Shown here in pieces: positions 1,051 to 60,581 of a stretch of DNA of 64,000 bases (the first letter of the stretch is position 1; each line of letters begins with the position of its first letter). Source of the stretch: Octopus vulgaris (lineage: Eukaryota); the NCBI GenBank assembly GCA_951406725.2, contig OX597827.1, positions 17,794,001 to 17,858,000 of the forward strand. Reading direction: 5' to 3'. Below the pieces are notes generated by a model. That model did not search any database. It saw only the letters and a program-made list of their open reading frames with translations, and was not told the origin of the DNA. The translations under genes and the position numbers were made by a program.

Positions 1051-1788
1051 TATTTAGACATAGTAGTCCCCTTCATCTCACCATATAAAAGAATTTTAAT
1101 TTAATTTAATGCTTACTACTCATTTCTCAGCTACACGTGTTTCTTGAGGTTCTTTTTTACGATATTTTTTACGACATTTCTTTTACGTTACCCTTAAGTT
1201 ATTTATACTTTGTAAATTTTTAATTTTTATCATTCGTATCATTTGTAAATTTTCTTTTTGCATTTTGTCCATCGTACTATAGTTTTTATTTGAAAATATT
1301 TATTTTTCATTGCTTTCAGTTTTATTCGAATATATTTATTTGTCATTGCCTTCATTATTATATCATCACAAGTATATATTTTATATTTATCCCTATTAAT
1401 TTTATATGAAAGTTTACAGGCATAAGTTACGTGAGAATTTAGTTTTTGTAAATTTTATTTTTTATTCGTATTTTTTATTTTTATTTGTTATTTTTTATTT
1501 GAATTAAATTAGGGCTTGCACAGTAAGGTCCGGCGATCCTATTTACACATACACATACTTATATGTTAAAATTAAAATATAGTATTTGGTATCAAACTAT
1601 GATAAAGTTATTTAGGGGCCTAATGATTAGGGTTACATTTTAATAAAGGTTCCTGTAAAACACTGCGTGCTTAAGGAACTGTAAAAGAACCTCAAGAAAC
1701 ACGTGTAGCTGAGAAATGAGTAGTAAGTATTAAATTAAATTAAAATTCTTTTATATGGTGTGATAATGGGGACTACTATCTCCAAATA
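1051..1788 (+). mobile_element. Non-coding Penelope-type fold-back element (inverted partial terminal repeat, AT-rich body, HHR-bearing terminal repeat)
   Basis: 1051-1160 is the reverse complement of 1681-1788. HHR motif at 1617-1710. The element ends in (TA)n. Confidence 0.65.
1617..1710 (+). ncRNA. Type I hammerhead ribozyme relic with extended stem II (G5A core mutation)
   Basis: GGC-CTAATGA-TTAGGGTT...GTTCCT...AGGAAC...AACCTCAA-GAAA-CACGTG-TA-GCT. Palindromic stem III and GUA cleavage triplet; core reads CTAATGA instead of CTGATGA. Confidence 0.6.
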
Positions 1789-2103
1789 ATATATATATAT
1801 ACATACACACACACACACACACACACACACACACACACACACACACACGACAGTTTCCGTCTACGAAATCCACTCACAAGGCTTTGGTCGGCTTGCAGTT
1901 ATATTGTTGTAGTAGAAGAACCATGTGGTTGGGAATCAGACTTCTTACTACACAGCCACTTCACCAAAATAGATCTATGGGAGCATAAAATAACAGGACC
2001 ATAATCACTTATCGGTTCGAGTTGATGAAGTACCTATAGGCATAGACATAATGGGCAAACAATCACTTTTTTAATCTAGAGCCCAGTCGGTGTTACTCTA
2101 AAT

Positions 2104-2753
2104 CACTGGTCCTTAACCAGGATCCATATGGCCCTCCGGGGTTCCATTTCAGATTTTACTGATAAAATTTATGTACAGTAAACTGGTCATACTTTAATGC
2201 ACAAAATATTTTAGCATTTTTTGTATACGTAATCTTTATATATAAAAGTGAAGTTGTGTGTCTGTCTCCTACGATTTAGATTCCTAACTACTCCCACATT
2301 TTGCGGTGCAGTGTAACCAAAAGCGGGTATCTTATAGTCGTGATTCATGTCGAGCCATTCTGGGTATTAGCGCGGGTCTACGATGAGTCTACGATTTTAA
2401 AAACCATTTACCATCATTTTTCCCATTTTCAATGCATTTTTTTGATATTATATAAGGGAAGTAACTCTCTAAAAATGTATTATTAAATCTCAGAACGTAA
2501 AAAGCTACAGTAACACCCCGCTTTGTGGTTAGCCATATTGAGATGGCTATTATACTTTACATCTCTAAAAATGCTTATATAGTTATTTCCCTTACAAACC
2601 CGTGCAACGCCGGGCGATACTGCTAGTTCCTAATAAAATTCAGTTATGAAAAATACGACAGGACGTTTTAAACATCGAATGGGTCTGAGGGTCTGCATGA
2701 CTGAAATGGGAATCAAAGAGGTCCATAGGTTAAAAAATATTTGAGAATGACTG
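2104..2753. mobile_element. Degenerate hAT-type MITE carrying a nested Helitron
   Basis: Ends CACTGGTCCTTAA...TTGAGAATGACTG resemble CAGTGGTTCTCAA TIRs. Flanking 8-mers CTCTAAAT / CTCTGAAG look like a decayed 8-bp TSD. Confidence 0.5.
2233..2626 (+). mobile_element. Non-autonomous Helitron
   Basis: Starts TC(TTTATATATAAAAG); ends with hairpin CCCGTGCAACGCCGGG then CTAG; inserted between A and T with no TSD. 3' end shared with 20253-20624. Confidence 0.85.
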
Positions 2754-2883
2754 CTCTGAAGAGAATAACTAATCCCTAAATTCCACAGGGATGCAGGAAT
2801 GGTTCATGTACCACGATGTAACAAAGGGCTTCACAAATAAAGAAAGAAAAGACCGCTGCTGTTGAGTACTTGCATACTTTATT

Positions 2884-56627: not shown

Positions 56628-56737
56628 TCTAACAGCTTTTTCGGCCGTAGGGACAAGTATGCCTCATTTAACCTATAAGCCATATAAGGCAGGTATAAAT
56701 GAGACATTAACAAGATGTCCCACGGCCTCTTCAGAGA
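56628..56737 (-). ncRNA. Hammerhead copy in the left arm, degenerate at stem III and cleavage site
   Basis: TCT-CTGAAGA-GGCCGTGGGACA...TGTCCCTACGGCC-GAAA-AAGCTG-TT-AGA. Confidence 0.7.
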
Positions 56738-59700
56738 ATTTAATTTAATATAAGTGTGAAAAGATTTTTACATATAAATATAAAAATATAAAATATAAAA
56801 ATGTGTGCATAGACACTCATAATACTACACATATATATATATATATACTCATTAATACAATAATACAAAATAAACAAAATATATCAATGTACATTAACAA
56901 ACACAGTTATTTTACATATTGGACTCCTAGTTCCATAACTAACATCAAGGAAAATATATGCACACTCACATTTAAATTTAAATCAGACATATATACATAA
57001 AAAAAAACACACAGTTCAGTTCATAAAATTATAACCCTACAAAAAGTCAATAAAAATTAATATTAATAATAATAATAATAATAATAATAATAATAATAAT
57101 AATAATAATAATAATAATAATAATAATAATAATAATAACCATGACTGTACCATGTACATCAAGCGGACATCTACATATCAATAAGTCTAATTCCTCTGTC
57201 CGCTTGATATTGATTATTCTAGATTGATTCGATTGCCTTATAGTTTTAAATTTGAATCACAAAGGAAATTTTACGGTTAGTTAGTCAAGAAACGCACATA
57301 CGCACACGCACATCCACAGATCCATCGCACATACATACAAAATTATATGTATACACACACACATACACTCATACACATACATAGCCACAAACACAGCCAA
57401 AAACATAAATAAATAAATAATATAAGAGGTATAATCGTAATTATGCAGCCATCAAGCCCCTCCAAAACGACAACAATGCCGTTGTATTAACTAAGAAGAT
57501 CCACTCACATATTTCCATAAAATATTTATTGTAAAGATACATATAATTATATCAAGACATAGAATGTAATTTTTCATAAGGTACATAATTCATATGACAC
57601 CGTATTTTCCGTAGCCATAGTATTTCATAACTAAACGTTTACTGACTTAACCGCTATATGTTATAATCAAACATACGTTAAATTATAAAGTATAGATTAA
57701 ACATTTCCATTTGACTATCAAAAGACAGAAATATACATATACTAAGTTGACATCGGTTTATAGCAATTAAATTATAAGAGATTAATTGTAAGAAGTCAAA
57801 ATACGCAAATATTCTAGGATATGTAAACAAACAAAACAAAACAAAATAATTCCTTATAGCATAAATAGATATCTCTACGTAATAAATCCAATGTTATTAT
57901 AATACTAATATTTATCTATCAAAACCCTTACCTACGAACTAATAGAATTACACTCACATATACATGCCCATAAATATACTCATGTGTAACAACAGACATA
58001 CACATACACACCATATATTTTCACATGTGACGTGCGTGTAAACTTTCATAGTACTTATATATAAATATACTTTTAAGCATCAGTGGACACATAAATACAA
58101 ATGTAATAATTAACAGGATTTGGCATTATATAATTTTGTAGCTACACATGTATATAAATATATATGTCCTGTATTAATTGTTTTTTGTTTATGTTTTTTT
58201 GTCTTGGTTTATAAGGGAAATACACTGCGGCAAGAAAGAATATATTCATTTTGGTATATGCACAGTAATATGATATTCTTGGAGTTTTCTAAAATTACAG
58301 AGTGTGTATGAATATCATAGTTAGATACCTGGTTTTAGATACTGTAATACTATTATGTAATATATGTGAGTCTATATTGGATTTTGTTTGTTTTGGTTGA
58401 GTATATGGGTTTTTGCAGGTTTTTTATTTGGCAGGCTTATATATTGTATATTTAGTGTATCTTTGTACTCACCTAAATTTGTATCTTATGCTATTTATTA
58501 ACAAACCTATTCATTTACTCACATTTGGCTTTATACATATTAGCAGTCTTATATATTTAGTCTATATTTGTACTCATCTTGATTTGTACATTGTGTTATT
58601 CATCTATTTATTTTTTTACTCATTATCTATAGGTAAAAGTTTACATAATAGTAGCCTGTATACTAAGTTTATATATGTACTTTCTTCAATATATATCTTC
58701 ACTTTATTTTATGTTATTTATTTACCTATATACTCTTTTATGCATATGTGGATATATGCATATTAGCATTACTATATATTAGGTGTACCTGTGTATTTAT
58801 CTGAATTTGTTTTCTATGGTATCTATCTATTTATTTAGTCATTCACTTATTTATTTAAATGTAGATATATACATACATATCAATTATTTATTTTAATAAT
58901 ATATGGATACATGTATACTAGTTTGTACTTATACTCTCTTTGTAATTTTAATTATTTCTTCTTATTTATTTTATCACATTTTAATCTTAAGTAATTACAA
59001 TTATTAACTTATAATTAATTTAATTTTTGTTATTTACTTATATACCATTTTATTGGTAAGTCCTCCACTGATATTATTTAATGCCAAATCCTGTTAATTA
59101 TTACATTTGTATCTATGTGTCCACTGATGCTTAAAAGTATATTTATATATAAGTACTATGAATGTTTACACGCACGTCACATGTGTAAATATACGGTGTG
59201 TATGTGTATGTCTGTTGTTACACATGAGTATTCTTATGGGCATGTATATGTGAGTGTAATTCTATTAGTTCGTAGGTTAGGTTTTTTGATGGATAAATAT
59301 TAGTATTATAATGGCATTGGATTTATTACGTAGAAATGATATCTATTTATGCTATAAAGAATCTTTTGTCTTGTTTTGTTTGTTTACATATCCTAGAATA
59401 TTTGCGTATTTTGACTTCTTGCAATTAATCTCTTATAATTTAATTACTATAAACCGATGTCAAGTTAGTATATGTATGTTTCTATGTCTTTTGATAGTCA
59501 AACAAAAATGTATAATCTATACTTTATAACTTAGCGTATATTTGATTATAACAAATTGCGGTGAAGTCAGTAAACGTTATGTTATGTAATACTATGGCTA
59601 CGGAAAATACGGTGTCATATGAATTGTGTACCTTATGAAAAATTACATTCTATGTCTTGATATAATTATATGTATCTTTACAATAAATATTTTATGGAAA

Positions 59701-60470
59701 TATGTGAGTGGATCTTCTTAGTTAATACAGCGGCATTGTTGTCGTTTTGGAGGGGCTTGATGGCTGCATAATTACGATTATACCTCTTATATTATTTATT
59801 TATTTATGTTTTTGGCTGTGTTTGTGGCTATGTATGTATGTATATGTATGAGTGTATGTGTGTGTGTATACATATAATTATGTATGTATGTGCGATGGAT
59901 CTGTGGATGTGCGTGTGCGTATGTGCGTTTCTTGACTAACTAACCGTAAAATTTCATTTGTGGTTCAAATTTAAAACTATAAGCCAATCGAAACAATCTA
60001 GAATAATCAATATCAATCGGACAGAGGAATTAGACTTATTGATATGTAGATGTCCGATTGATGTACTTGGTACAGTCATGGTTGTATTTATTATTATTAT
60101 TATTATTATTATTATTATTATTATTATTATTATTATTATTATTATTAATAGTAATTTTTATTAACTAGGGTTATAATTTTATAAACTGAACTGTGTGTTT
60201 TTTTATTTTTTTATGTATATATGTCTGATTTAAATTTAAATGTGAGTGTGCATATATTTTCCTTGATGTTAGTTATGGAACTAGGAGTCCAATATGTAGA
60301 ATAACTGTGTTTGTTAATGTATATTGATATATTTTGTTTATTTTGTATTATTGTATTAATGAGTATATATATATATATGTGTAGTATTATGAGTGTCTAT
60401 GCACACATTTTTATATTTTATATTTTTATATTTATATGTAAAAAATTTTCACACTTATATTGAATTAAAT

Positions 60471-60581
60471 TCTCTGAAGAGGCCGTGGGACATCCTTGTT
60501 AATGTCTCATTTATACCTGCCTTATATGGCTTATAGGTTAAATGAGGCATACTTGTCCTCACGGCCGAAACAGCTGTCAGA
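60471..60581 (+). ncRNA. Type I hammerhead with intact core and ~86-nt stem II
   Basis: TCT-CTGAAGA-GGCCGTGGGACA..TGTCTCATTTA..TAAATGAGGCA..TGTCCTCACGGCC-GAAA-CAGCTG-TC-AGA; predicted cleavage after 60578. Confidence 0.85.

Follow-up and report, generated by a model that had tools for sequence, protein, structure and literature searches.

The locus considered here raises the question of which elements carry four hammerhead ribozyme motifs that resemble each other in plan, with a long stem II, and whether they form a class of their own. The window, that is, the whole stretch analysed, comprises 64,000 nucleotides of Octopus vulgaris DNA (assembly GCA_951406725.2, contig OX597827.1, positions 17,794,001 to 17,858,000 of the forward strand); the surrounding genome has a size of 2.8 Gb in 227 contigs and is rich in microsatellites. 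The original prediction held that four sequence-unrelated families in this window represent a diverse, lineage-wide class of ribozyme-bearing ends of Penelope-like elements (PLEs). Comparison of the sites with their relatives throughout the genome indicates that they are very probably type I hammerheads within the terminal repeats of PLEs (pLTRs), three of them in separate families of the Hydra clade and one in a non-coding tandem unit. The families are designated A (site 1617), B (50002), C (51806) and D (60471), and the coordinates of all features are collected in the table below.

A strict scan of the window (CTGANGA, GAAA, 6 nt, TH and a stem I of at least 3 pairs) returned exactly three hammerhead sites, those of families B, C and D, whereas dinucleotide shuffles of 2-kb blocks gave a mean of 0.017 sites per window, with one site in one of 60 shuffles. 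The fourth site, at 1617-1710, was recovered when one mismatch was allowed. Its core reads CTAATGA, whereas an intact core (in the majority CTGATGA) was found in 43 of 54 family A copies; hence, the window copy is likely dead. All four hammerheads were found where they had been predicted, the three strict sites in excess of shuffled sequence, and to these were added an inverted copy of D that has decayed, an incomplete inverted copy of A and two minimal hammerheads of the U3-A8 kind. The type I core (CUGANGA/GAAA/NUH) is intact in three of the four window copies and in the majority of copies of all four families. An Rfam scan of the window gave no hammerhead among the best 150 of 487 rows, which held only miRNA matches driven by microsatellites. 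The flanks form repeat families, as had been anticipated, with 594, 875, 2099 and 982 first-look candidates genome-wide for A, B, C and D, respectively, of which 40 per family were scored. As also expected, the families have no primary sequence in common, and a (TA)n or (CA)n/(TA)n tract is reached 80-250 nt past each of the four hammerheads.

The predicted association with PLE open reading frames (ORFs) was recovered for three of the four families, which could be traced to parents encoding reverse transcriptase (RT) or GIY-YIG nuclease domains. Copies of D that extend further upstream enter the GIY-YIG domain and the RT; the parent ORFs of 955-994 aa contain DKT, YRDD and CxCx5C, and the hammerhead is located 2.1-2.5 kb past their stop codon, giving an element of more than 5 kb (an ORF of ~960 aa plus 2.1-2.5 kb). 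In family A, ~0.9 kb of non-coding sequence lies upstream of the ribozyme, preceded by a Hydra-type ORF with RLKWK, DKT, LYRDD and CxCx5C motifs, the RT of which is ~40-50% identical to that of D. Long copies of B reach back to a third Hydra-type nuclease domain (CxCx5C/GIY-YIG), 37% identical to that of D, and to a fragment of the RT thumb that is 51-59% identical to other Hydra proteins found here. An RT with DKT and an RWK-like motif is thus present in D and A, in B only as the thumb fragment and not in C, and the CxCx5C linker and C-terminal GIY-YIG domain with CxxC and CxH are present in the parents of A, B and D. A link to Naiad elements was rejected, as the GIY-YIG domain is C-terminal and not N-terminal in all traced parents. 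Loci L079 and L080 were rejected as an upstream route for B; they led to a different element adjoining B, designated family F (L208-L222), a Hydra-type element with a CATATG hammerhead and a stem II of ~54 nt. A fixed 5' end is common to the short copies of F, as is a two-armed layout, and the tail of L221 enters the start of a Hydra-type ORF. Some ORFs of D (L162, L166, L177) contain long asparagine-rich stretches between RT and nuclease; such stretches have been described for PLEs of Adineta (PMC3846280).

The ends of the copies agree with this affiliation. Behind the ribozyme, copies terminate at either of two fixed distances and pass into (TA)n, many of them with an inverted truncated arm; measured behind the query, the two classes lie at ~60 and 134 nt in A, ~105 and 185 nt in B and ~145 and 240 nt in C. 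Insertion into (TA)n and inverted truncated arms are hallmarks of PLEs (PMC8557442), and the two 3' ends per family correspond to the pair of RT start sites that in vitro work located in an Anolis PLE (PMC11167929). In the mechanism proposed, the GIY-YIG nuclease would nick (TA)n and the RT would begin synthesis behind the ribozyme, at either of two internal sites.

Stem III, together with the flanking A and U, forms an 8-nt palindrome in families A, B and D, and dimers of the octamers were calculated at -5.8 to -11.1 kcal/mol against +1.8 to +2.4 for the monomer hairpins. Since the octamer forms a duplex but no stable hairpin in these calculations, dimer-dependent cleavage is predicted, an arrangement that has been proposed for PLE hammerheads (PMC4209133, PMC6765202). 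An octamer of the form A-C-NNNN-G-U could not form a closed stem III by itself; it would pair instead with the octamer of a second copy. Inverted arms, being on opposite strands, offer no such pairing within one transcript; tandem pLTRs and units of C could pair. Cleavage would thus be slow or conditional, and most of the RNA would be copied uncut. Imperfect stems such as CGATTG, found in the window copy of B against CGATCG in 42 of 48 family copies, look like the result of CpG decay. Folding of stem II relative to shuffles gave z-scores of -3.6 for C, -7.4 for D, -1.0 for A and -1.1 for B, so that a marked advantage over shuffled sequence is confined to C and D. Compensatory pairs were observed in C (stem I in 10 rows, stem II in 11, 13 and 13 rows, of 38) and in D (9 and 3 of 41 rows), though these represent few events inherited by subfamilies.

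When the search was extended to the whole genome, 43,049 matches with 30-90 nt between the core halves were counted against 1,573 for reversed-pattern controls, i.e. a ~27-fold excess. This sum is made up of forms of 30-60 nt with an A/T center (22,168 against 284) or a G/C center (6,448 against 64) and of forms of 61-90 nt (14,433 against 1,225); it does not include forms of 30-60 nt whose central bases are mixed or any form above 90 nt, and a few sites may be counted twice. A stem I of at least 3 pairs was present in 25 of the first 30 unselected matches (30-60 nt, A/T center), and (TA)5 lay within 260 nt in 24 of them, compared with 318 of 1080 background positions (29%). The long form is, however, no separate class. 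Stem II length is a continuum, because 15,160 matches (1,148 in the controls) have only 8-29 nt and because subfamilies of B with 20-22, 30, 36-37 and 39 nt carry an unchanged stem I and stem III. At 20 loci around RT matches of graded divergence, further Hydra families with versions of 55, 57, 59 and 97 nt were found, and several loci had none. Hence, the diversity of ribozyme-bearing PLE ends that had been predicted extends over the genome, whereas the idea of a separate class did not hold; the ends belong to a known clade, and the long stem II marks the upper end of a range. This genome probably contains one of the largest natural libraries of hammerheads, with stem II regions of up to ~100 nt. 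Standard descriptors cap stem II far below these lengths, so that eukaryotic hammerheads are probably underestimated in number.

Family B carries, in addition, a record of splicing. Nearly all short copies have a common start ~30 nt ahead of the core, whereas long copies contain a 29-nt exon, GT, an AT-rich intron of 0.7-1.4 kb, TTTTAG and 8-9 nt, followed by stem I. At 20 loci the exon was followed directly by GT in 17 and by GT one base further on in 2 more, the ribozyme being in range in 15 of the 20 (four of these are duplicates of one another). Genome-wide, 607 matches were precisely spliced and 254 carried the acceptor, with 0 in the controls. In a sample of 30 spliced copies, every start lay no more than 20 nt from the exon motif, and promoter-side sequence was found in none. 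Six subfamily-specific starts of the second exon occur in both the spliced and the unspliced list. The copy in the window belongs to the spliced group and is one A shorter in its A-run than the closest parent predicts. No pile-up of 5' ends at the predicted cleavage site was evident among partial matches of B, on which no formal test was made. Contigs of four public runs (four organism codes), two of them presumed to be RNA and two of undeclared type, cover parts of the B stretch, with neither ends nor strand visible. The fixed 5' ends of families B and F fall at a TCAT(T/A) motif that resembles an initiator.

These observations suggest that the spliced copies are cDNAs of a sense, spliced RNA copied across the uncut ribozyme to its 5' end. 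On balance, it seems somewhat probable that they are strong-stop products, primed internally on the 5' leader of sense, spliced and uncut mRNA, and that full-length copies derive from the downstream, unspliced pLTR of the same transcript. [quoted passage not shown] The genomic sequences of B thus point to sense, spliced and uncut RNA as the template, which bears on the question of how PLEs retain introns. If this is true, intron retention is explained without an antisense template, and the start site, splice sites and RT start sites can be mapped from the genome alone. From such pairs of spliced and unspliced copies, the template question for PLEs can be tested on sequence.

Other explanations were weighed. 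Decay of the window copy of A and of the inverted copy of D might suggest chance matches or dead structural relics without a ribozyme role, and cleavage is dispensable for in vitro insertion of the Anolis PLE (PMC11167929). This reading is nonetheless very improbable in view of the 27-fold enrichment and of the retention of core plus palindrome across many sequence-unrelated families. A different proposal is that selection favors the long stem II for a separate role, as a protein platform, in a tertiary contact with stem I or as a pause site for the RT. It could draw on the predominance of long forms here (43,049 against 15,160), the very stable stem of D and the compensatory changes in C and D; a range of 20-39 nt among subfamilies of B with unchanged stems I and III, the lack of any stem II sequence common to the families and the folding of A and B, no better than shuffles, make it rather doubtful. 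It is preferred that the outer stem II is likely little constrained and would lengthen or shorten, the stem II base, stem I and core being kept.

The short copies of B might also be a self-propagating lineage resembling short interspersed elements (SINEs), descended from one splicing event, rather than repeated by-products. Spliced copies do outnumber acceptor-bearing ones (607 to 254), and Penelope has an internal promoter (PMC2377424), so that short copies might be transcribed. Against this, the six junction variants in both lists require repeated splicing, and none of the 30 copies sampled showed tandem units, which leaves such a lineage unlikely.

Several points weigh against the account given here of PLE-borne, potentially cleaving and, in B, spliced hammerheads. 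The Hydra clade was assigned from motifs, the RT core of B was not recovered from its truncated parents, and tblastn with three PLE proteins across ~50 loci gave no parent for C. Stem I of A has only 2-3 pairs and the base of stem II in B contains an A-G or A-C juxtaposition, so that both ribozymes may cleave poorly; the stem II z-scores of A and B lie near -1, and RNAalifold returned next to no consensus structure in A and no such structure in B. The splicing model comes from one family, B, as no spliced form was seen among 56 rows of A or in copies of D from 30 loci.

Family C differs from the others in its layout. The sequence upstream of the ribozyme continues that downstream of it, and loci L090, L095 and L098 contain two to three units of ~530-550 nt, each with a type I hammerhead. 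It is a non-coding tandem unit that likely borrows PLE enzymes. Animal non-LTR retrozymes are likewise non-coding head-to-tail units with one type I hammerhead each and have been proposed as PLE derivatives (bioRxiv 10.64898/2026.07.22.740005), a proposal that C would fit. C differs from them in its 46-nt stem II, PLE-type tails and inverted arms; octopus is unmentioned in the available text of that preprint. Further tandem hammerhead units of ~530-600 nt, unrelated to C, were found at G000:C1:5011305-5012441, 10836774-10838643 and 1193739-1194341.

The pairing of PLEs with hammerheads is already known; what is unusual is the long stem II, the scale and the spliced/unspliced pair of B. In the available parts of the study by Craig et al. 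[quoted passage not shown] The published Hydra rows (counted from File S2) have ~12-26 nt between the core halves and a stem III of mostly 7-8 nt, whereas 30-99 nt and a 6-nt palindrome dominate here; the published elements, in contrast to D, are also generally below 3 kb, a tendency that is not diagnostic. A stem II of ~50 nt has a precedent in PLE-X1 of the spike-moss Selaginella, marked as deviating (PMC8557442), and PLEs scored there as having no hammerhead, or a "half core" 35-50 nt apart, merit a rescan. The minimal metazoan PLE hammerheads (Cervera and de la Pena 2014, PMC4209133) are also of type I with a short stem I, a larger-than-usual stem II and a palindromic stem III; the dimer model, many families per genome and a U3-A8 variant are described there as well. 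Their helix II of 6-8 bp is shorter than those found here, and thousands per genome (up to ~9,000) were reported as against ~40,000 long ones here. In D. virilis Penelope the intron ends next to stem I, as in B (PMC4209133). In intron-retaining Penelope elements, too, a short 5' exon and a spliceosomal intron lie within the pLTR (PMC2377424, PMC3846280), but the intron of D. virilis Penelope measures 75 bp, compared with 0.7-1.4 kb in B, for which spliced genomic copies are abundant. An antisense template for intron retention is favored in PMC3846280, where the choice between antisense and unspliced sense RNA is left open. No description of a long stem II in animals or of abundant spliced PLE copies was found in the literature searched (Lunse et al. 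2017 and supplements beyond Craig et al. 2021 lay outside the comparison), and the word "hammerhead" does not occur in the available main text of the Octopus vulgaris repeat paper (PMC13282606). With dozens of families that combine one core with unrelated stems, the genome provides natural material for testing what a dimeric hammerhead can tolerate.

Table. Hammerheads and PLE-type insertions in the 64-kb window
Feature	Position	Strand	Description
Family A, partial copy of 3' end	985..1157	-	Inverted; begins inside stem II, carries the longer 3' end (tail); limits approximate
Family A, 3' end of Hydra-clade PLE	1165..1788	+	5'-truncated to its non-coding part; terminates in (TA)n/(CA)n
Family A, type I hammerhead	1617..1710	+	69-nt stem II region; stem III CACGTG (CACGTG/TA); core decayed to CTAATGA
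Family B, short copy	49970..50275	+	Spliced, the 5' and ribozyme exons meeting near 49993; flanked by (TA)n tracts; 3' end carries the tail
Family B, type I hammerhead	50002..50064	+	36-nt stem II region; stem III CGATTG (CGATTG/TA)
Family E, Neptune-like PLE	50294..51444	-	5'-truncated; C-terminal GIY-YIG fragment 50460-51188; inverted 3' arm 51188-51444
Family E, U3-A8 minimal hammerhead	50422..50461	-	Short stem II; 4-nt stem III
Family E, second U3-A8 minimal hammerhead	51277-51316	+	
Family C, tandem repeat unit	51570..52050	-	One truncated unit of the non-coding ~530-550 nt head-to-tail repeat; PLE-type ends
Family C, type I hammerhead	51728..51806	-	7-bp stem I; 46-nt stem II region; stem III CCGAGG (CCGAGG/TA); compensatory changes among subfamilies
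Family D, inverted arm	56460..58134	-	5'-truncated; decayed hammerhead at 56626-56734 (-)
Family D, 3' non-coding region of Hydra-clade PLE	58126..60765	+	~2.6 kb; truncation point ~100 nt past the stop codon of the parent
Family D, type I hammerhead	60471..60581	+	86-nt stem II region (-41.7 kcal/mol); stem III CAGCTG (CAGCTG/TC)

Between 49846 and 52050, three PLE-type insertions (B, E and C) are stacked in successive (TA)n tracts, and B adjoining E recurs at locus L234. A protein search with family E gave 21,453 first-look candidates; in young copies (L156-L160), an upstream frame of 495 aa overlaps an RT-EN frame of 811 aa. The window further contains, on the minus strand, a fragment of a LINE (long interspersed nuclear element) with a zf-RVT match at 16921-17736, and a C-terminal LINE fragment at 26076-26510 that has no Pfam match and presumably resembles elements of the R4/Dong type.

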